In this document: positions 7,490 through 31,108 of the stretch, piece after piece
Layout of the letters: each line of letters begins with the position of its first letter
Position numbering within the stretch: position 1 is the stretch's first letter
Source: an uncultured bacterium
Lineage (GTDB): Bacteria; Margulisbacteria; WOR-1; CAVSGV01
Length of the DNA: 32,000 bases
NCBI GenBank assembly: GCA_963699255.1
Contig: OY969425.1
Location: 840,001 to 872,000, forward strand
Direction of reading: 5' to 3'
Made by a program: the position numbers and the translations under genes
Notes under the pieces: model-generated
Told to the model about the DNA's origin: nothing
Seen by the model: the letters and a program-made list of their open reading frames with translations, nothing else
Database searches by the model: none

Positions 7490-10400
7490 ACCTGCACGGA
7501 ATAGCCAGAACATTATCTAGCGATCCCCGGTTCGACAAGATCATCGGCAGCAGAAAAACAGCCGTAGAAGGCCTTGCCGGCAGCGCGGCTGCCGCTTTTT
7601 ACTCCGCCCTCTTTATAAAAACCGGCAAAACGCTCCTTGTAATATCCCAGGATGCCGAATCGCTGTCGAATGACATCAAAACCTTTATAGGAGATAACAG
7701 GGCATATTACTTCCCAGCCTGGGACACATTTCCGACCGAAGATATCTCCCCCAGCACGGAAATAGTCGGAGAACGTCAGGCGATACTTGACCGGATACTG
7801 GCGGGAGAAAAGCTGATAATTACTGCGGCCATAAAATCGGCGGTAACAAGGGTCATTCCAAAAACCGTTCTGCAGGAAAATACCATTTCCCTTCAAACCG
7901 TAAGTTCTAAGATCGACCCTGAAGCGAAGCTCAGCGCATGCTTCAGGGTCGACCGGGAAGGATTGATCAGCCAGCTCGTGAAGCTTGGATATAAGAGAAG
8001 GGACATAGTTGGAGAACGGGGGGAATTCGCCGTGAGAGGAGGGATATTGGACATTTTCGCCCCTAACTTATCCGATCCTGTAAGGATAGAGCTTGTCGGC
8101 GACAAAATAGAGTCACTCAGGTTCTTTGATGCGGCAAGCCAGAGGTCCAAGGCGGGTGTCAAAGGGGTCAAGATATTTCCTATTCACGAGCTTGTCCTGG
8201 ACGGAGCCGAAGGATCCGTTCTTGAGGGCGAGGCAGAATACAAGGACGGGATAGAGCTCAAAATACCTCAAATATATGCCGGTTTTAGCGGCATCTTCGA
8301 ATATCTTGATGACGGGACCTTGATAATACTGGACGATCCACGAAGTCTTCGTCTTTCCCAGGAAAAACTGATCAAAGAAATAGAGGAACTGCGCGGAAAT
8401 TCAACGGGGAAATTTTACCTGGATGTTGATGAATTTGAAAGATCGCTGTCGAACTATCCCTTGATCACGCGTGGCGACGGCGAAGGCGGAGTATCGTTTG
8501 ATTTTGCACCGGCGGACGATCATATGGGAAAGATCGATCAGCTTATTGATAAGCTGGTAAAAGAAAGAGCCGGGATGTCGACTTTCATAGTAAGCAAGCA
8601 GGCTGACAGGCTCCATGAACTTTTCATTGAGAGAGGGCTTGTAGCTCAAAAGATCGAAGAAGTACCGCCTGACTTCAAGAAAGGCATATTCATACTGTTC
8701 GGCAAGCTCAGGACCGGTTTTCGCGGCAACGGGATAGAGGTCCTGACGGACAGAGAGCTGTTCGGCGAGATGCCATCAAAGGTCACGTTCACGCCCAAGC
8801 CATCGGAAGGGGTCTCTGAAAAACTGCTCGCTGAACTTTATGTGGGGGATTATGTCGTCCATTCAAATTACGGGATAGGGATATACAGGGGCCTAAAGAA
8901 GCTGGAGATCGACGGCGCGCTCCAGGAATACATCCAGATCGATTACGCGCAGGATGACAAGCTCTATGTGCCGCTGCACCAGATGGGCCTTGTTGAAAAA
9001 TATTCCGGCGGAGGGGACTACAAGCCAAAGATAGGACGACTTGGAGGAACAGAGTGGGCAAGGCAAAAGTCCCGCGCAAAGAAATCCATAAAGGACATTA
9101 CCGAGGAGCTGCTTGACCTTTATGTTTCAAGACACAAGATGGAAGGGCTAAAGTATCCTCCGGATTCTTTGTGGGAGATGGAATTTGAAAAATCCTTCCC
9201 GTATGAAGAAACTCCGGATCAGGCAAAAGCGATCCGGGAGATCAAGAAAGACATGGAAAGCGGAAAGCTTATCGACAGGCTTGTTTGCGGGGACGTGGGC
9301 TACGGGAAAACAGAAGTAGCTCTTCGCGCGGCTTTCAAGGCCGCGGTATCAGGCCAGCAGGTAGCGGTCCTGACCCCTACGACCGTTCTTGCCGACCAGC
9401 ATTTCCATGTTTTTTCCCAAAGGTTCAAGCCCTACCCCATCACGGTGGAAGCGCTGTCCCGGTTCAAGAGCAAGGATGAACAAAAACAGATAATCAGATC
9501 GCTTGAAGCAGGAGCGATCGACATAGTTATCGGGACCCACAGGATGATCCAGAAAGACGTTAAATTCAAGAACCTGGGCCTTCTTATAATAGACGAAGAG
9601 CAGAAGTTCGGGGTTTCGGCCAAGGAGAAGCTGAAGCAGATCGCGATGAGGGCCAATGTGATAACACTTTCCGCAACGCCTATCCCGAGGACGCTCTACA
9701 TGGCTCTCTCTGGCGTCAGGGAGATGAGCATCATCGCAACCGCGCCCCTTGACAGGTCTCCCATAAGGACATACCTGAGGGAATTTGACGAGAATATAAT
9801 AAAGGAAGCGATAAGAAGGGAGCTTGAGAGAGGCGGCCAGGTGTTCTTCGTTCACAACATCGTAAAAAACATAGACAAAATAGCCGCCCTAATCAAACAG
9901 ATAGTCCCGGAAGCCAGGATCGCCGTGGCGCACGGGCAGATGAAGGAATCCAGCCTTGAGGAGATCATGATTAAGTTCGTGAACAAAGAATTTGACGTTC
10001 TGCTCTCGACAAGCATAATAGAATCCGGGCTTGATATCCCGTCCGTAAACACCGTGATAATAGACAACGCTTCGGAATTCGGCCTCTCACAGCTTTACCA
10101 GATAAGAGGCAGGGTCGGAAGGTCTTCAACGAGAGCTTTCGCATATCTTCTCTACCATAAAGAAAAGGTCTTGACGGATAAAGCCCTCGAGAGATTGAAA
10201 GCCATACAGGAATTCACCGCTCTTGGTTCCGGATACAAGCTCGCAATGGCTGACCTTGAGATAAGAGGCGCCGGAAATATCCTCGGGGGAGAACAGCACG
10301 GTCACATGCTTAACATCGGATTTGACCTGTACTGCGACCTGCTGGAGGAATCCGTAAGAGAGCTTAAGCACATCGAGCCCCCGGCGGCAAAAAAGGTGTT

Positions 10401-10800
10401 CATTGACCTTAAGATAGACGCTTTCATACCAAAAGATTATGTCGCGGACGACAAACAGCGGATAGCGCTCTACAGAAGGATGAATGCCCTGAACGATCTC
10501 AGGGAACTTGAGGGATTAAAAAACGAAATGATCGACAGGTTCGGCCGCGCCTACCGGGGCGGTCAGTCCCCGACCGAAGCATCGGGGCAGGCAGAGAAGA
10601 TACCTCCGGAGCTTGAATCATTGTTCAGAATAATCGAGCTCAAGATAGAGGCGGGAGAAAAGAACGTCACAAGCATAACGGGCGGCTCGGAACTTGTGGA
10701 AATACAGTTCGATCTGAAAAAACCGATCGTCATAAGGACCAGGGGCATGCCGAAAGAAAAATGGTTCAATCTTGTGCGTGATAAAATAAGGCAAATGTAA
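7486..10800 (+). CDS. mfd: Transcription-repair coupling factor
   Basis: The 1104-aa protein has a UvrB-like N-terminus, a CarD/TRCF RNAP-interaction region (YVVHSNYGIGIY), helicase motifs (GDVGYGKTEVA, DEEQKFG, SATPIPRT, QLYQIRGRVGR) and a TRCF C-terminus. The GTG start overlaps the pth stop (GTGA). Confidence 0.95.
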   Translation: MNLHGIARTLSSDPRFDKIIGSRKTAVEGLAGSAAAAFYSALFIKTGKTLLVISQDAESLSNDIKTFIGDNRAYYFPAWDTFPTEDISPSTEIVGERQAILDRILAGEKLIITAAIKSAVTRVIPKTVLQENTISLQTVSSKIDPEAKLSACFRVDREGLISQLVKLGYKRRDIVGERGEFAVRGGILDIFAPNLSDPVRIELVGDKIESLRFFDAASQRSKAGVKGVKIFPIHELVLDGAEGSVLEGEAEYKDGIELKIPQIYAGFSGIFEYLDDGTLIILDDPRSLRLSQEKLIKEIEELRGNSTGKFYLDVDEFERSLSNYPLITRGDGEGGVSFDFAPADDHMGKIDQLIDKLVKERAGMSTFIVSKQADRLHELFIERGLVAQKIEEVPPDFKKGIFILFGKLRTGFRGNGIEVLTDRELFGEMPSKVTFTPKPSEGVSEKLLAELYVGDYVVHSNYGIGIYRGLKKLEIDGALQEYIQIDYAQDDKLYVPLHQMGLVEKYSGGGDYKPKIGRLGGTEWARQKSRAKKSIKDITEELLDLYVSRHKMEGLKYPPDSLWEMEFEKSFPYEETPDQAKAIREIKKDMESGKLIDRLVCGDVGYGKTEVALRAAFKAAVSGQQVAVLTPTTVLADQHFHVFSQRFKPYPITVEALSRFKSKDEQKQIIRSLEAGAIDIVIGTHRMIQKDVKFKNLGLLIIDEEQKFGVSAKEKLKQIAMRANVITLSATPIPRTLYMALSGVREMSIIATAPLDRSPIRTYLREFDENIIKEAIRRELERGGQVFFVHNIVKNIDKIAALIKQIVPEARIAVAHGQMKESSLEEIMIKFVNKEFDVLLSTSIIESGLDIPSVNTVIIDNASEFGLSQLYQIRGRVGRSSTRAFAYLLYHKEKVLTDKALERLKAIQEFTALGSGYKLAMADLEIRGAGNILGGEQHGHMLNIGFDLYCDLLEESVRELKHIEPPAAKKVFIDLKIDAFIPKDYVADDKQRIALYRRMNALNDLRELEGLKNEMIDRFGRAYRGGQSPTEASGQAEKIPPELESLFRIIELKIEAGEKNVTSITGGSELVEIQFDLKKPIVIRTRGMPKEKWFNLVRDKIRQM

Positions 10801-10861
10801 GGCACCGGAGGCATGGTTCGTCCTTTACATATTGTTATACCTGTGGTAAATTACAGGCCAA

Positions 10862-11863
10862 ATGAAGAATAAGTTATTAATGCTCGTCATTGTCCTTCTT
10901 ATTGCCACGCTTCCCGTGTTCGCCGCGGCAAAAACGACTTCCAGGAAATCGGCCCCAAAACCTAAACCCGCCGCAGTAAAACCGGCGGCGAAAGATGTTG
11001 AATGGGCCGCCAAGGTGAACGGCGATCTGATCTCCATGGACCTCTATAACAGGAGAGTGGATAGCGCCATAAAAGAAATGACAAAAAAGATAAGCATTGA
11101 AGCGGCGGAGGAAAATGGACTGGTAAAGGATACAAAAAAATCGATACTCGAACAGATGATAGAAGCTGTAATCCTTCTCCAATGGGCGGACAGGGAAGGC
11201 CTGGAAATATCCGACAAGACCATAAAAACAAAAATATCTCAGATAAAGAAATCCTTCCCTTCGGCGCACGAATTCCACAAGTCTCTTGCCGAACAGGGAA
11301 TGTCGATCGATGACTTAGGACGGGACATAAAGAAACAGATCATCATCGATAAGATGATAGACATGAGGGCAAAGGCGCTCGCGGTAACGGATGAGGAAAT
11401 GAAGGCGTTCTATTACAAAAATCTCGACCTTTATTATCAGGAAGAAAAGCTCCACCTGCAGCAAATATTCAGGAAGGACGAGAACGACATCCAGGCGGAA
11501 AAAAGGAAGATCGACAGCGGAAAAGCGTTCAACGGCGAGGACATAGGGATCGTTGAAAAAAGCCAGCTCCCCGTCTACGAGGGCTCACAGATATTCAAGC
11601 TTAAACCGGGCGATATAAGCAGCGTTACTTCCGGTGAAGCAGGATATTACATATTCAAGGTCGTGGAAATCACTCCCGCAAGAGAAACGAAATTCGCGGA
11701 TGTTAAGGACAGCATAAGGAGATTCCTTCTTAAGGAAAAAGGCCGCACCAAGTTCATCAATGACCTTCAGGAAGAAAAAACGAACGCGAAGATCATTTTG
11801 AACGAAAAACTCGGTAAATTATTCTATCCCGTCACTTCACAAGAAGCAGAACCGCGTCCTTAA
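10862..11863 (+). CDS. Periplasmic SurA/PpiC-family peptidyl-prolyl isomerase/chaperone; the parvulin domain is divergent
   Basis: It has a signal peptide, a SurA_N-like region (AKVNGDLISMDLYNRRVDSAI..., ILEQMIEAVILLQWA) and a degenerate rotamase-like segment (GDISSVTSGEAGYYIFKVVEI). Confidence 0.65.
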   Translation: MKNKLLMLVIVLLIATLPVFAAAKTTSRKSAPKPKPAAVKPAAKDVEWAAKVNGDLISMDLYNRRVDSAIKEMTKKISIEAAEENGLVKDTKKSILEQMIEAVILLQWADREGLEISDKTIKTKISQIKKSFPSAHEFHKSLAEQGMSIDDLGRDIKKQIIIDKMIDMRAKALAVTDEEMKAFYYKNLDLYYQEEKLHLQQIFRKDENDIQAEKRKIDSGKAFNGEDIGIVEKSQLPVYEGSQIFKLKPGDISSVTSGEAGYYIFKVVEITPARETKFADVKDSIRRFLLKEKGRTKFINDLQEEKTNAKIILNEKLGKLFYPVTSQEAEPRP

Positions 11864-12332
11864 GCATGTTCTTTGAATCGTGTTTTTCCGAGTCAGCCAG
11901 GAATTCGGCCAGCGCCTGCTTTATTTCGCCGAAAGTGAAATTTTCTTTCCCCCCCGATTCGATATATGTCCCGCCCGATTTCTTTTGCCTTTTCGAAAGT
12001 TCCTTACCGAGCTGATCGGTGACCTTATTCCTTACGGAATCGACGAGCCTCTGGTTCACTATCTCCAGAACGATCTCGCCTTCATCGAAGATCTTTATCC
12101 CTTCGTTGTCTATATGGATATCCTCATTCACGATCTTGTCGGAAGTGATCTGAGAGAGGTATACGCTGATTATCTTCTTTGCGACTTCCGGGTTGAGCCG
12201 ATTGCCGATAATGAATTTCGGCTCAACGTTCACGCAGGTATGCTTTGCGTTAACTGCTATGGGCTTGCCGTGATCGAGCCAGAACGCCTTTAGGGCCTTC
12301 TCCACTTCATATTTATTTTCTTCATTTATCAT
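11832..12332 (-). CDS. Hypothetical protein (166 aa); I recognise no family
   Basis: It starts at an ATG with SD AGGGAG and lies 15 nt downstream of 12348-12941. Its 3' end overlaps the convergent PPIase gene by 32 nt. Confidence 0.5.
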   Translation of the reverse strand: MINEENKYEVEKALKAFWLDHGKPIAVNAKHTCVNVEPKFIIGNRLNPEVAKKIISVYLSQITSDKIVNEDIHIDNEGIKIFDEGEIVLEIVNQRLVDSVRNKVTDQLGKELSKRQKKSGGTYIESGGKENFTFGEIKQALAEFLADSEKHDSKNMLKDAVLLLVK

Positions 12333-12347
12333 TTTAACCTGCTCCCT

Positions 12348-12941
12348 TCAAACTACCTTTTCATAAGCCAGGTATTTCATCAGCACTTTCCCCACAAGCC
12401 AATTCTCGTCGTACACAAGTTTTAGGCCGTTATCTTTCTCACCCACAGTCGCAGCACTGGCCGTTTCACTGGCCTCACTTGCCCTATCCATGTTGTTGAT
12501 ATTGAGCTTTACTGGCCCCTGCCCGACCGCTACATCACTTCCGCTTTTTTGTTTTGATTGGAATTTGGTCAGATCGATTAAGATCTTGGTATCATCCTTG
12601 ACTGAGTACTTCAGCTCCGACTTAAATTTTTGGACTTTTGGGATGATATCTTCGGCAAGGATCTTGGGATCTTTGCATGCCTTTTGCAATAACATGGCTA
12701 GTGAGAGATCATTTGCGCTATCAACTTCCTTGACAAACTTCACTATGCTCGATAAATTCTCCTTAAGATCTTTAATATATTTAACATAAACTGAGTTCAG
12801 GTCCGCTTCAGTTGCGGCCACAAAATCTTTGAGAATTTGGGCAAGCATTTTCCGCGCCGTACCCTGCGGATATGCACCCCTTAACTGAGAAATATTAATC
12901 TCAGTTGGTTTTATTGATGCCCCAGATGATTCTACGCCCAT
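12348..12941 (-). CDS. Hypothetical protein (197 aa), predicted to be mostly amphipathic helices with a Ser/Ala/Thr-rich linker
   Basis: The track start at 12986 is a TTG. ATG 12941 has SD GGAGGG 8 nt upstream. I recognise no family. Confidence 0.5.
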   Translation of the reverse strand: MGVESSGASIKPTEINISQLRGAYPQGTARKMLAQILKDFVAATEADLNSVYVKYIKDLKENLSSIVKFVKEVDSANDLSLAMLLQKACKDPKILAEDIIPKVQKFKSELKYSVKDDTKILIDLTKFQSKQKSGSDVAVGQGPVKLNINNMDRASEASETASAATVGEKDNGLKLVYDENWLVGKVLMKYLAYEKVV

Positions 12942-27818: not shown

Positions 27819-28580
27819 TTATTGCGGGTTTGCTTCCTGCGCGGATATCAGCTCTTCGGCGATCTCTTTCATGGATTTTCTGCTGTCCATGCTCTGTTTT
27901 TGCAGCTTCCTGTAAGCCTCTTCCTCAGACAGCCCTTCACTTTTCATGATCATGCCCTTTGCTTTCTCGGTCAGCTTTCTTTCCTCCAGCCTTACGGCGA
28001 GCATTTCCTTCTCTTCTGCAAGCTTCCTGTTCGATATCGCTATCGCCGCCTGATTCGCGACCGCGGAAACAAGCCTGATCTCGCCGGCGGTGAACTTGTG
28101 CGGCCTGGAAGTGTAGCTGTTCAATACCCCAATAGCCTTTCCTTTCACGATGAGAGGGACCGCAAGCATTGAACAGAGTTTTTCTTTTTTTGCTATCTCC
28201 GGGAACATGTAATCCGGTTCCTTTTTTACGTCAAGCACCGTTATCGGCTTTTTTTTGCTGACCGCCTTCCCGCTGATCGACTGGCCGACCTTTACATTCG
28301 GCTTGTCTGTGTAACTATCGCTTAAGCTCTGCGTGGCGGCAAGCCGGAGCTCTTTCTCGTTTTCACTTAGCAACATCAGGGAGCATATCTTGGAGCCCAT
28401 GACCTCAGCCGTCATCGCGACAATTATCTTCAGGATATCATCAAGGTACATGTCCGAAACGATGGCGGTGCTTACCTTGCCAAGAGTTTCAATTTCTTTT
28501 TGGAGCGATCGGGATGATTTTGTCATTGATATATTTCCTAAATTTTCCCTGACGATAGATTGGCTGGGAACTCGAGTCAT
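27819..28580 (-). CDS. GAF-ANTAR RNA-binding antiterminator-type regulator
   Basis: The GAF region is LDDILKIIVAMTAEVMGSKICSLMLL...GKAIGVLNSY. The C-terminal ANTAR domain is ERKLTEKAKGMIMKSEGLSEEEAYRKLQKQSMDSRKSMKEIAEELI. ATG 28526 (SD AGGAAA) is an alternative start. Confidence 0.85.
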   Translation of the reverse strand: MTRVPSQSIVRENLGNISMTKSSRSLQKEIETLGKVSTAIVSDMYLDDILKIIVAMTAEVMGSKICSLMLLSENEKELRLAATQSLSDSYTDKPNVKVGQSISGKAVSKKKPITVLDVKKEPDYMFPEIAKKEKLCSMLAVPLIVKGKAIGVLNSYTSRPHKFTAGEIRLVSAVANQAAIAISNRKLAEEKEMLAVRLEERKLTEKAKGMIMKSEGLSEEEAYRKLQKQSMDSRKSMKEIAEELISAQEANPQ

Positions 28581-28598
28581 CTTCGAACTTTCTCGATA

Positions 28599-28627
28599 AT
28601 TCTACCTAATACTATCCACGGGAGCAA
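28599..28627 (-). promoter_or_regulatory. Sigma-70 promoter of the GAF-ANTAR gene
   Basis: The - strand reads TTGCTC, 17 nt, TAGAAT. Confidence 0.5.
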
Positions 28628-28640
28628 GAAGCACTTATGA

Positions 28641-28684
28641 CTACCGATACTGTGACTTAGCCGGGGAGTTTCACAGTATCCCTC
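28641..28684. repeat. Inverted pair of the 19-bp CGGnTAnTTCACAGTATC site (left cluster)
   Basis: GATACTGTGA (28646-28655) and TCACAGTATC (28671-28680) are perfect 10-bp inverted repeats 15 bp apart, centred on CCGG. The flanks match the right-hand copies. Confidence 0.7.
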
Positions 28685-28694
28685 TATATACGAT

Positions 28695-28747
28695 ACGCGT
28701 ACACAGGCACGTACGCACGAGCGCAGGCGCGCGGCCAAGCGCGCACT
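28695..28747. other. GC-rich tract of about 53 bp with almost continuous purine-pyrimidine alternation
   Basis: Alternating runs are ACGCGTACACA, CACGTACGCACG, GCGCA, GCGCGCG and GCGCGCAC. The tract includes the hairpin GCGCGC/ggccaa/GCGCGC (28727-28744) and abuts an AT-rich stretch (28750-28815). Confidence 0.5.
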
Positions 28748-29324
28748 AGGTATTTATTAATTAATATAATACGTATTCATTTGTACAGTTGATTGATAGC
28801 TGTTGTTCATTAGCATTAGAGAAAGACAAAGGATCAATGACTTTGGATATGAACACGAACAGAAGACAGAAGAACCTGACCCAAAGAGTTGAAGACACGC
28901 TGAGAGCTTGAAGTTATTGCTGTTCACACAGCCAAAGAAGCTTTCGGGATCCTCGAAAAGAAGAAGCTCATTGTCCCGCTACGCTGGACGGGACAAGCTG
29001 TCCGTCACAAAGATTGTTCGACTCGTGGCTCTTGAGGAACGTTCCCTGCCACGATGGGCCCGCCAAAGGCCAAGGCAGGCGAAGCTGGTCTGTCTGCTTA
29101 ATCTGAGCGTTTCCAGAGCGGAATGAAGGCATTCCTTGAGCCTCCTCAAGTGATTGCTCATTGTATTTCTGTGTTGCTTTTTCCATGGTTCCGCCAAAGG
29201 AGAATGACCAACTACCAATGAACAATGCCCCCGCCTTCGCCGAGGCTTCCGCCAGAGGCGGACAAGTCGACAGGCAGGTAATTAAGGTGTGCTACGCACA
29301 TTCAAAGGAGAAAGACCATAACTC

Positions 29325-29453
29325 CTGCTCCGCCTCCGGCGGTATTTGACTTTGTGTCATGCCGCCCGCCAATGCCCGCCAAAGAAAAGAACCAAAGCTA
29401 CTGCTCCGCCTTCGGCGGTATTTGTCTTCGTGTTGTGCCGCGCCGCCCGCCAA
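29325..29453 (+). repeat. Two direct repeats of about 50 bp, each starting with a small GC hairpin
   Basis: Copy A (29325-29372) is CTGCTCCGCCTCCGGCGGTATTTGACTTTGTGTCATGCCGCCCGCCAA. Copy B (29401-29453) is CTGCTCCGCCTTCGGCGGTATTTGTCTTCGTGTTGTGCCGCGCCGCCCGCCAA. Each has a CCGCC/GGCGG hairpin followed by TATTTG. Confidence 0.7.
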
Positions 29454-29541
29454 ACCACTCCCAAAATGATTGGGGAAAGAATCCGCAAAACCAAGCATGA
29501 AAAATGAGCAAAAACTGATGAAATCCTGAGGCCAAAAACAA

Positions 29542-29602
29542 GCGGTTACTTCACAGTATCCTACCGGGTATTCCACAGTATCGAGCGGTTAGTTCACAGT
29601 AA
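29542..29602 (+). repeat. Three phased direct copies of the 19-bp site (right cluster), abutting the promoter of 29639-31108
   Basis: The copies are GCGGTTACTTCACAGTATC (29542-29560), CGGGTATTCCACAGTATC (29565-29582) and GCGGTTAGTTCACAGTAAG (29584-29602). The CACAGTA cores start at 29552, 29574 and 29595, a spacing of 22 and 21 bp. Confidence 0.75.
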
Positions 29603-29603
29603 G

Positions 29604-29632
29604 TTGACTTTTTAAGCCCCAAGGGTGATAAT
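29604..29632 (+). promoter_or_regulatory. Sigma-70 promoter predicting a leaderless mRNA for 29639-31108
   Basis: TTGACT (29604-29609), 17 nt, then GATAAT (29627-32). The seventh nt after the -10 element is the A of ATG 29639, and there is no SD. Confidence 0.55.
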
Positions 29633-29638
29633 TCCCCC

Positions 29639-31108
29639 ATGATTGAAGAGCTTGAATACTTAACTTTGAATGAAATGAAAGCTTTACTCAATTCCATCGA
29701 CGACACCCGCGACCGGGCAATTATTGCTCTATTTCTTAATACGGGCCTCTTCTTGAACGAGGTAACCTCCCTGAAAGTCGACTCAATCGACTGGAAGAAA
29801 AAGTCACTTTCCGTCCCCGGCAACAGGAAAAGAACTATCCCACTGAATGACCAGGTTTTTGAGGCGCTTGCCAAGTGGTCGAAAGAGCGTCCGTCGGGCA
29901 AGATTCCCGATCTTTTTGTCACCACAAAAGGAGAGCTGAAAGACCTCAGCAGCCGCGGCGTCGATTATCTGATAAGAAAGTACGCTGAACAGGCTGGCAT
30001 AAAGAAACGGGTTAATCCGCAGATACTTCGCAATACATTTGCGGTCCGGTTATTCTCAGAAGAACCCTCCGTGGAAAAAGCTTCTGCCATTCTGGGTATA
30101 TCCGATCCGGAATCGGTAAATCGCTATATACAGGCCTCCAAGCGACCGCCGGCCAAGGTCGAGATAACTGAAAAGCTTGAGCATATCGATACCCGCCATC
30201 CTCTTGTTAAAGCCGTTTCCAAGATGTTCCCTACTAAGCCGAAAATCGTTAAGCCAACGACCGCAATAAAAGGCGCTATTACCCCAAGCCCCGAAGAAGT
30301 GATTTTCGGCAGAGAGAATATAATCAGCGATATAAAAGCTGATATCGGCAAAAGCCAGTCTGTTCTATTGACAGGTCCTTTGGGGATAGGCAAAACACAT
30401 CTATTGAAGCACATGTCCAAAGCGTTGGGGCCTAATACATTATATATCTCTTCTCCCACTCCGCTAAAGATTGTCCTTACGCAAATTCTCAACAAGCTTG
30501 ATCCTGCATGGCAGGAGCAATTAAATACAAGAGCTTCAACGAAAGAGATAGCCGATTACATCGTGAAAATAAAGGGCGCAAAGCCCCCTATCCTGATAAT
30601 CGACAATTTGAACAACATAAAAATATCGGATATCGACCCTATCTTGACCTTACTGGATAACTTCCCCATACTTGCCGCGGCTGACGAGACAAAACCGAAG
30701 CTCAAACAGGTCTGGTGGAAGTTCAAGGAGATCGAGCTTCCGCCGTTAAAAGAGGATTCCTCGAAGGAGCTTATCAAATACCTGACGCAGAACCTAACTA
30801 TCAGCGATTATGAAATGCTTGAAACAAGGATATTGACCCTGTCAAACGGCCTTCCCCTTGCAATCGTTGACATGATCCATCAGATAAGCCATATCCCGAT
30901 GGTTTCAAAAGATGTTATTCGTGATGTTTACCACGAAGCCGGAATACATTATCGCGACTGGACAACCGTTATAATTTTCATTTACTGGATAGCTGTCATT
31001 TTCAGGTTCGTCGCGCTTGGCACAAAAAGTTATGAGGCCTATTTTCTCGCCGGTTTCGGCGTGACTCTTTTGATGATCTTAAGAAATGTTATGTCGATGT
31101 TGAAATAA
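29639..31108 (+). CDS. Fusion protein: degenerate tyrosine-recombinase-like domain, then a STAND/NB-ARC-like P-loop NTPase, then two C-terminal TM helices
   Basis: The N-terminal about 165 aa follow the integrase catalytic-domain pattern, but TGLFLNEV replaces TGLRxSE, QILRNTFA replaces HxLRHTFA and LGISD replaces LGH; the RYIQ Tyr is kept. The middle region has FGRE...LLTGPLGIGKTHLL, ILIIDNLN, FPILAAAD, IELPPL and NGLPLAI. The C-terminus is WTTVIIFIYWIAVIFRFVALG...FLAGFGVTLLMIL. Confidence 0.65.
   Translation: MIEELEYLTLNEMKALLNSIDDTRDRAIIALFLNTGLFLNEVTSLKVDSIDWKKKSLSVPGNRKRTIPLNDQVFEALAKWSKERPSGKIPDLFVTTKGELKDLSSRGVDYLIRKYAEQAGIKKRVNPQILRNTFAVRLFSEEPSVEKASAILGISDPESVNRYIQASKRPPAKVEITEKLEHIDTRHPLVKAVSKMFPTKPKIVKPTTAIKGAITPSPEEVIFGRENIISDIKADIGKSQSVLLTGPLGIGKTHLLKHMSKALGPNTLYISSPTPLKIVLTQILNKLDPAWQEQLNTRASTKEIADYIVKIKGAKPPILIIDNLNNIKISDIDPILTLLDNFPILAAADETKPKLKQVWWKFKEIELPPLKEDSSKELIKYLTQNLTISDYEMLETRILTLSNGLPLAIVDMIHQISHIPMVSKDVIRDVYHEAGIHYRDWTTVIIFIYWIAVIFRFVALGTKSYEAYFLAGFGVTLLMILRNVMSMLK

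Follow-up and report, generated by a model that had tools for sequence, protein, structure and literature searches.

A gene-free kilobase in the end region of a serine-recombinase island at a tRNA-Gln gene

The window, by which we mean the whole stretch of DNA that was analysed (32,000 nucleotides), corresponds to positions 840001-872000 of a 1.77-Mb genome represented by a single contig; positions below are those of the window unless the genome is named. Between a gene of the GAF-ANTAR type and a gene for a recombinase-ATPase, the segment 28646-29602 contains only short, mutually overlapping ORFs of at most 94 aa. A search of all ORFs of at least 40 aa in this gene-free stretch against Pfam and PHROG returned no significant match; the best scores, for HTH_30 (E 0.023) and Phage_int_SAM_5 (E 0.16), are both below the cut-off. 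We therefore agree with the preliminary description, made from the letters of the window, that no ORF here looks protein-like.

The stretch is rich in repeats, as had also been reported. All six plus-strand copies of CCAAAG were recovered, each at exactly the position first assigned to it; the expected number is 0.23 when calculated from the frequency of the hexamer in the genome and 0.54 under a Markov model of the region. At least six copies of this hexamer appeared in 0.02% of simulations, and some hexamer reached six copies in 3.3% of them. The copies are part of a longer unit CCGCCAA(A), and CCGCCAA is present five times against 0.08 expected. The steps of 131 bp between three GCCAAAG copies are real in this copy of the sequence; however, in the homologue from G002 one of these copies is absent and the distances are altered by indels. 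Since the spacing is not kept there, we read it as chance.

The claimed enrichment in hairpins was confirmed: there are six perfect stems of at least 6 bp where 1.6 are expected (0.6% of simulations), and 17 stems of at least 5 bp where 6.4 are expected, with a range of 3-15, mostly 4-10, in coding segments of the same size from the window. Some details need correction. The hairpin TTTCGGG/CTCGAAA, described as perfect, contains one G-T pair and is perfect only as RNA; the 8-bp hairpin assigned to 28970-28995 does exist, although its true position, 28971-28996, differs by one base; and three additional 6-bp stems were absent from the original list (28697-28716, 28727-28744 and 29120-29135). 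Folding z-scores relative to 20 shuffles for each strand are -2.1 for the plus strand and -4.1 for the minus strand; the better-than-shuffled fold of the minus strand is neither needed nor used by the inverted-repeat-arm explanation given below.

A BLAST comparison with the same genome, one of the checks proposed at the outset, revealed an inverted copy of the stretch (921 bp, 99.1% identity), which lies outside the window. The left and right copies, IR-L and IR-R, match perfectly over 828 bp; the 11 differences between them are confined to the inner 85 bp. They bracket 16.7 kb of cargo, and the gene starting at 29639 is the first one inside. The features around the stretch are as follows.

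27819-28526, minus strand: host GAF-ANTAR gene adjoining the left end of the island; its start is the ATG at 28526, not 28580
28564-29475, no strand: left arm IR-L of the 0.92-kb inverted repeat, from self-BLAST (match from 28557)
29541-29632, plus strand: unique DNA just inside the arm, with three direct TTCACAGTA sites 21-22 bp apart
29639-31108, plus strand: recombinase-ATPase gene, first of the cargo, with Pfam domains Phage_integrase and AAA_22 (AAA/STAND ATPase)
genome 886132-887043 (window-equivalent 46132-47043), inverted: right arm IR-R, from self-BLAST (match to genome position 887051)

The gene-free stretch is non-coding DNA in the end region of an integrative island of about 20.4 kb (genome 868564-888958), which owes its insertion at the tRNA-Gln(CTG) 3' end to a large serine recombinase. 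From left to right, the order is the host ANTAR gene, IR-L, the cargo, IR-R, a 197-bp sequence D, an xre gene, the serine recombinase gene, an inverted copy of D designated D', and the tRNA-Gln gene, which is on the minus strand. The serine recombinase gene (genome 887540-889087) matches Resolvase PF00239 (8.6e-38), Recombinase PF07508 (7e-17) and Zn_ribbon_recom PF13408 (6e-11), and its product is a complete large serine recombinase.

Three junctions were compared directly, namely IR-L tip/host flank, IR-R tip/D and tRNA-Gln/D'. The sequence CCCAG is found at both arm tips and also at the tRNA-Gln 3' end, as when the ends of an element join a specific site via a short core, and D' starts exactly after this end of the tRNA. 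The IR-R tip together with D is the exact sequence produced by joining both island ends, which at the level of sequence identifies it as an intact, inverted spare attP. The other attP was split by integration, and IR-L represents its half on the element side; the junction of IR-L with the host is attR, and the junction of D' with the tRNA is attL. Two relatives that have the ANTAR gene carry different upstream neighbours, so synteny is not kept, and neither of the two revealed an empty site, in which tRNA-Gln would be the immediate upstream neighbour of the ANTAR gene.

Our overall reading, which we consider quite likely, is that the stretch is an inverted-repeat arm of a serine-recombinase island and contains a promoter and protein-binding DNA. 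The preliminary description had suggested, among other things, the cargo of a non-autonomous mobile element. The mobile element is upheld; the island, however, is autonomous, with a large serine recombinase gene of its own, and the stretch is one of its terminal inverted-repeat arms. The domain scan of the cargo covered proteins other than the 961-aa protein and identified, among others, a YdjM-like membrane protein, a Cas4-like nuclease, a WYL regulator, ClpP, a DprA-like protein, an M78 peptidase and an ECF sigma factor.

Several other kinds of element were considered and set aside. DDE transposons, casposons and self-synthesising elements resemble the island in having long inverted repeats at the ends of a gene block; in contrast to them, the island has no Cas1, polymerase or target-site duplication, no transposase domain occurs among the scanned proteins (the 961-aa protein being left out), the flanks are not duplicated, and the right arm is internal to the island rather than at its end. 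An invertible segment of the Hin/Gin or FimB/FimE type does not fit a matched protein that lacks Arg-I and the three His, nor arms of about 0.9 kb in place of about 26-30 bp. For an integron attC array there are no cassettes and no active integrase. A folded single-stranded attP of the CTX-phage type was set aside because a serine recombinase cuts both strands, and a hairpin substrate would break the chromosome.

The same architecture was found in seven islands of three families: the present island (A), B, G002 and G001 in f1, G012 and G016 in f8, and G009 in f5. The shared plan is an arm, the recombinase-ATPase gene, cargo, an arm, D, the serine-recombinase gene and D'. An xre gene preceding the serine-recombinase gene was detected in A, B and G009; G001 yielded neither the D/D' pair nor the serine-recombinase gene, and in G009 no D' was detected. 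Arms are 394-1292 bp long, with 89-100% identity. Island B belongs to the same genome (40.7 kb, 1054069-1094807) and has perfect 1292-bp arms; it exhibits the same junction pattern at tRNA-Glu, with the core GCTA, and its arms share with those of island A a conserved core at about 80-85% identity. The G002 island is at tRNA-Arg. A compact relative at tRNA-Met, again in the same genome, follows the same plan with only a 56-bp arm and has no recombinase-ATPase gene; therefore, the long arm goes with that gene.

Seven further arms were taken from metagenome contigs, and 14 arms were aligned in all. The alignment and the junctions allow the left arm to be divided into the following parts.

28564-28598, minus strand: island tip, the P side of attR, ending in CCCAG, with a GTTCGAA-containing hairpin; from the junction comparison
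28599-28627, minus strand: putative outward promoter of the sigma-70 type, TTGCTC-17-TAGAAT (-10 at 28599-28604, -35 at 28622-28627)
28646-28680, no strand: inverted pair GATACTGTGA-N15-TCACAGTATC, a candidate operator, upstream of the tip promoter's -35 box at a distance of 19-58 bp
28681-28925, plus strand: conserved core, consisting of a CCCTCTATATA box and the four parts that follow
28697-28716 and 28727-28744: two 6-bp hairpins of the GC-rich purine/pyrimidine block of the core
28750-28790: AT-rich block of the core
28837-28911, plus strand: possible 24-codon micro-ORF of the core
28866-28915: 94%-conserved block of the core
28926-29290, no strand: variable, dispensable middle with most of the hairpins originally listed, the CCGCCAAAGG copies spaced by 131 bp and what may be a minus-strand gene relic
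29305-29441, plus strand: two 76-nt direct repeat units, each with CCGCC-loop-GGCGG followed by TATTTGnCTTyGTGT (hairpins 29330-29342 and 29406-29418)

The position and conservation of the tip motif suggest an outward promoter. It is the best-conserved block of the arm (12 of the 14 arms), and its 29 nt occur five times in the 1.77-Mb genome, solely at the tips of serine-recombinase elements. With 8 of 12 matches it is below the threshold of the simple promoter scan, which did not list it, so that the promoter call is based on reading the hexamers by eye. Such a promoter would point, at the left end, into the host GAF-ANTAR gene and, in the right arm, across attP toward the recombinase gene. 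The ANTAR orthologues in G003 and G004 begin at the Met equivalent to 28526. For annotation, this means that the nitrogen regulator gene begins 18 codons later than the longest ORF implies and that it is now downstream of what appears to be an element-borne promoter. The sigma-70 scan of both strands had as its sole match the promoter of the recombinase-ATPase gene, with no inward promoter for the micro-ORF or the terminator-like units; when the arm was scanned for promoter motifs of the ECF type, a single weak match turned up, in a hairpin specific to this copy.

The pair GATACTGTGA-N15-TCACAGTATC is invariant across the 14 arms. On the inner side, the three TTCACAGTA sites abut the promoter of the recombinase-ATPase gene, TTGACT-17-GATAAT (29604-29632), and are conserved in B, G001, G002 and L085. 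Family f8 has a different protein and a different motif (TCGCAaCATCCC), and this motif is again present in the arm and before the gene; the site motif changes together with the protein family. From this co-occurrence we infer that the recombinase-ATPase binds the sites in the arm and those preceding its gene and regulates both promoters.

In an alignment with three Xer proteins of the same genome, the recombinase domain of this protein has Phe for Arg-I, QxxRN for HxxRH and Ile for the later His, with the Tyr kept, and the N-terminal core-binding domain is missing. Judging by these residues, its tyrosine-recombinase domain is catalytically dead. The protein is reminiscent of STAND/AAA regulators of the MalT and AfsR/SARP type, where a DNA-binding domain is likewise fused to a STAND-like ATPase and repeated sites are found just upstream of the -35 boxes of the targets, the own promoter included. 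It differs from them in that the DNA-binding part appears to be a degenerate tyrosine-recombinase catalytic domain; regulation in the island is suggested by the position of the sites only.

Sites, a GC-rich and an AT-rich block side by side make it tempting to propose that the arm is a replication origin or a partition/anchoring site of the excised circle, with the recombinase-ATPase as initiator or membrane tether. The inverted site pair is about 70 bp from a 40-bp AT-rich block with the GC-rich block between them, an arrangement conserved across families; the protein joins a DNA-binding domain to an AAA ATPase, and its intact relatives are located on plasmids. We nevertheless find this proposal improbable. 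No gene for Rep, a primase, a helicase, a relaxase or ParA/B occurs among the scanned island proteins (a set without the 961-aa protein); a Flavobacterium plasmid with an intact homologous gene pair encodes Rep and ParA itself and is free of long inverted repeats; the 'iteron' spacing of 131 bp is not conserved; and the arm DNA has no match in the plasmid and phage collections. Thus, of the protein-binding array of a partition or origin type suggested in the preliminary description, the protein-binding sites are retained as predictions, while the absence of a Rep/Par gene and the lost 131-bp phasing speak against the origin or partition part.

Within our preferred reading of the stretch as an inverted-repeat arm, the core of about 250 bp is largely kept in 10 of the 14 arms, and its first 110 nt or so in all but two. 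L083 retains these first nucleotides only, G001 has no micro-ORF block, and L084 and L087 are divergent. A CCCTaTATA box adjoins the site pair in families f1, f8 and f5, and the order of the parts (this box, the GC-rich block, the AT-rich block) is the same in all three. The micro-ORF is preceded by a Shine-Dalgarno sequence, and its changes are mostly at third positions in the first 11-14 codons. We do not call it a gene, because its end varies among the arms by frameshift or stop and the DNA downstream of it is even more conserved.

B, G001, L083 and L085 either lack the middle of the arm (28926-29290) or have other DNA in its place, and relative to G002 this middle shows indels that are not multiples of 3. 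Its minus-strand frame NHLRRLKESLNSSLETL is interrupted by stops in G002, L082 and L081; this frame is possibly the relic of a decayed gene. A protein-coding gene recoverable by allowing for frameshifts, a possibility raised at the outset, did not emerge: there is no family match, the homologues have stops in every frame, and the lengths of the indels are as stated. A short decayed gene relic may still be present within the stretch.

Both 76-nt units at the inner end are picked up by the terminator scan (4 matches against 1.4 expected; the stems are only 5 bp). One compensatory stem variant, CCGAC/GTCGG, is found in G002_L and G001_R. L082, L086 and G001_L have lost the stem but retain the T-rich tail, and for this reason the units are regarded as inward-facing terminators only tentatively.

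The excess of hairpins, the two z-scores, these inward hairpin-plus-T units with their stem variant and the micro-ORF with its Shine-Dalgarno sequence could be combined into a different proposal, namely that the arm specifies a structured ncRNA or a long leader, directed inward to the tandem terminators or outward on the minus strand. We consider this most improbable, and the large structured ncRNA of the preliminary description is not supported. The Rfam scan proposed there gave no match at the gathering score in the whole window and none even at E<=1 in 28450-29700. The covariation check, performed with RNAalifold on seven homologous arms, resulted in a term of +0.39, which is no support; on the plus strand, 9 of 142 pairs have any double change and many pairs are broken. 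Most of the hairpins originally listed are deleted or broken in homologues without compensation, four of the six longest included. The terminator stems disappear from three arms with the tail sequence kept, the promoter scan has no match on either strand inside the arm, and the ends of the micro-ORF differ by frameshift.

A serious partial rival to our reading concerns the arm interior (about 28690-29475), which may have no function of its own. Gene conversion would have spread the boundary inward from a short attP duplicate, in the style of chloroplast inverted repeats, and copied the upstream region of the recombinase-ATPase operon, along with old gene relics, to the other arm. Related elements do differ in arm length (56 to 1292 bp); erosion is seen at the inner boundary, in contrast to the identical outer 828 bp; the middle is missing or replaced in the four cases named above; and the conserved frame ridden with stops suggests a gene relic. 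On balance we hold such a neutral expansion to be rather unlikely, given that most of the core, together with the site pair, survives in 10 of the 14 arms (G001 and L083 keep the outer part of the core only), that the recombinase-ATPase gene is present in all seven long-armed islands, that the same succession of site, CCCTaTATA box, GC-rich block and AT-rich block is seen in f1, f8 and f5 despite unrelated sequences, and that G012 retains both arms at 90% identity instead of losing one.

Arm identity within an island is 99.5% in A and 94.5% in G002, against 75-76% between these two islands. The arms thus undergo concerted evolution, which recombination between them would be expected to produce; G012 and G016 show a weaker signal. 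A related observation concerns L085 and L083, in which homologous host flanks (tlpA-like and ccdA-like genes, 73% identity) adjoin the arm tip. Past the arm, L085 leads to the recombinase-ATPase gene and L083 to a zinc-finger gene of the opposite cargo end. This pair would fit the presence of the cargo in both orientations; L083 is a 2.5-kb short-read contig and may have been mis-joined through the repeat. The G014 contig ends too soon to show the cargo orientation.

The explanation that we propose for the inverted-repeat arm is as follows. The free circle would have two inverted repeats of about 1.1 kb, each with an attP, which split it into two unique segments. Recombination between the arms, or the use of either attP, would flip the cargo, which one metagenome contig fits. 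The tip would provide the outward promoter, and the adjacent operator pair would serve the dead recombinase-ATPase, three more candidate sites for which precede the promoter of its own gene. The dispensable filler would hold most of the hairpins and CCAAAG copies, and the two inward terminator-like units would insulate the recombinase-ATPase promoter.

This kind of element is already known. As in phiC31, Bxb1, A118/LI, SPbeta SprA, TnpX and ccrAB of SCCmec, an integrase with Resolvase, Recombinase and Zn-ribbon domains is encoded at one end; like elements of the phiC31/Bxb1 type, the island uses a specific site with few shared bases and makes no long direct repeats. However, those elements have a single attP of about 50 bp, whereas the island keeps a second, intact and inverted one. 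Furthermore, where an island has the recombinase-ATPase gene, another 0.4-1.3 kb of element-side DNA is included in the duplication, unlike in the phiC31/Bxb1 type, so that the cargo is bracketed by long inverted repeats. We know of no described large-serine-recombinase element with a second inverted attP and long inverted arms around the cargo, and a literature search for this layout found none. We have not found a description of this variant, in which a long inverted duplication of the attP region contains sites for a dead recombinase-ATPase.

The circle that we infer resembles the yeast 2-micron plasmid and plastid genomes, which also have two long inverted repeats and two unique segments; the likeness extends to arms that evolve in concert and to the expectation of two orientation isomers. 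The 2-micron plasmid has an active tyrosine recombinase, Flp, which operates at sites inside the repeats, whereas the protein matched to the sites in the island is catalytically dead, and the active enzyme of the island is a serine recombinase that acts at the attP of the repeat. In addition, no replication origin was found in the island, and its circle is deduced.

The tycheposons of Prochlorococcus (bioRxiv 10.1101/2020.12.28.424599) are similar to the island, according to the searched part of that text, in their tRNA-associated cargo, site-specific integrases and variable adaptive or defence genes. As far as the same part goes, a minority of them have large serine recombinases and most have tyrosine ones, and many carry replication genes; it contains no long inverted arms, and inverted repeats appear in it only in the title of a cited reference (bioRxiv 10.1101/2020.12.28.424599).

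It is tempting to go further and view these islands as a prokaryotic counterpart of the 2-micron design, with insertion via either attP, a flipping cargo and, regardless of the attP used, an outward arm promoter brought beside the host flank under the control of a domesticated dead recombinase that is fused to an ATP switch; the same protein might pair the arms and loop out the defence cargo. We offer this as a speculation that we ourselves find doubtful.

We believe that the 'mystery non-coding kilobase' becomes a defined part of a mobile island, and that the spare inverted attP, the dead recombinase-ATPase with its site array and the gene-free spacers are thereby tied together. If true, the two-attP circle with cargo flipping would be an undescribed way of organising and regulating serine-recombinase islands, in a poorly studied phylum, and the recombinase-ATPase would be a further case of a recombinase fold reused as a DNA-binding regulator.

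In the left arm of the inverted repeat (window 28564-29475), a micro-ORF preceded by a Shine-Dalgarno sequence occupies 28837-28911 and starts MTLDMNTNRRQKNL. Its first 11-14 codons vary across the arms mostly at third positions; its end differs among them by a frameshift or an early stop.

A start at 28580 would make the GAF-ANTAR ORF of the host, which adjoins the left tip, 18 codons too long; the orthologues in two relatives (G003 and G004) begin at the Met of 28526. Its native promoter is likely TCGTCA-16-TATATC, located between the island tip and the ATG of 28526; the outward promoter of the island is now upstream of this gene as well.

The segment D and its inverted copy D' flank the xre and serine-recombinase genes of the island at tRNA-Gln, and the second island of the same genome, at tRNA-Glu, has an equivalent pair.

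D and D' in the two islands (genome coordinates)
887041-887237 and 888763-888958: island at tRNA-Gln, outside the window
1094804-1094956 and 1096581-1096733: island at tRNA-Glu

Each copy contains a palindrome of about 40 bp (CGGCGGCCAAAAATGGGCGGGGGCATTTTTGGCCGCCG in the first island, an equivalent of different sequence in the second), and the bases of the stem differ between the two in a compensatory manner. The palindrome may serve as a protein site, or else as a terminator inside the 3' end of the recombinase gene. The xre and serine-recombinase genes are divergent and their starts are only 10-28 nt apart (genome 887511-887540, outside the window); therefore, each promoter must lie within the reading frame of the other gene. 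The promoter at the right-arm tip is about 470 nt upstream of the serine-recombinase gene, co-directional with it and antisense to xre.

The ECF sigma-factor gene of the island points inward, away from the right arm, and is preceded by an ECF-type promoter, GAC-N16-CGTC, that lies immediately interior to this arm (genome 886000-886070, outside the window). Elsewhere in the cargo (genome 881032-882071, also outside the window), a protein of 147 aa, a stand-alone FtsZ C-terminal domain, adjoins a ClpP-like protease (193 aa).

In a related island (G002), the recombinase-ATPase gene (L009/L032, G002:C3:301544-303013) is split into four frames and has an internal TGA; the two 926-bp arms of the island remain 93.8% identical. 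On a metagenome contig with a homologous arm (L081:1-213, reverse strand), the arm tip adjoins a host terminator flank present as two tandem copies with a 29-nt tRNA-Glu 3'-end fragment in between, which looks like the scar that a previous insertion or excision left at this very site.

The recombinase-ATPase gene belongs to a trio of genes that the island shares with the Flavobacterium plasmid pA5BP1.

Trio on pA5BP1 (L088, NZ_MN657160.1)
9344-12570: recombinase-ATPase (24% identity), small ORF, long YdjM-type hydrolase

Considering its presence on a plasmid, the pair is a portable module, independent of the serine-recombinase islands.

The tip-promoter motif is also found at host genes in other genomes.

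Tip-promoter motif loci
G014:C11:31200-31346: L058
G030:C38:12033-12200: L015
G022:C1:201297-201400: L012

In two other families, the motif with a leader ending CCACCA is immediately upstream of tRNA-Val(CAC); in a third, the motif precedes a pyruvoyl-type arginine decarboxylase gene (named by eye from the translated N-terminus). These loci are probably old element ends that drive host genes today.
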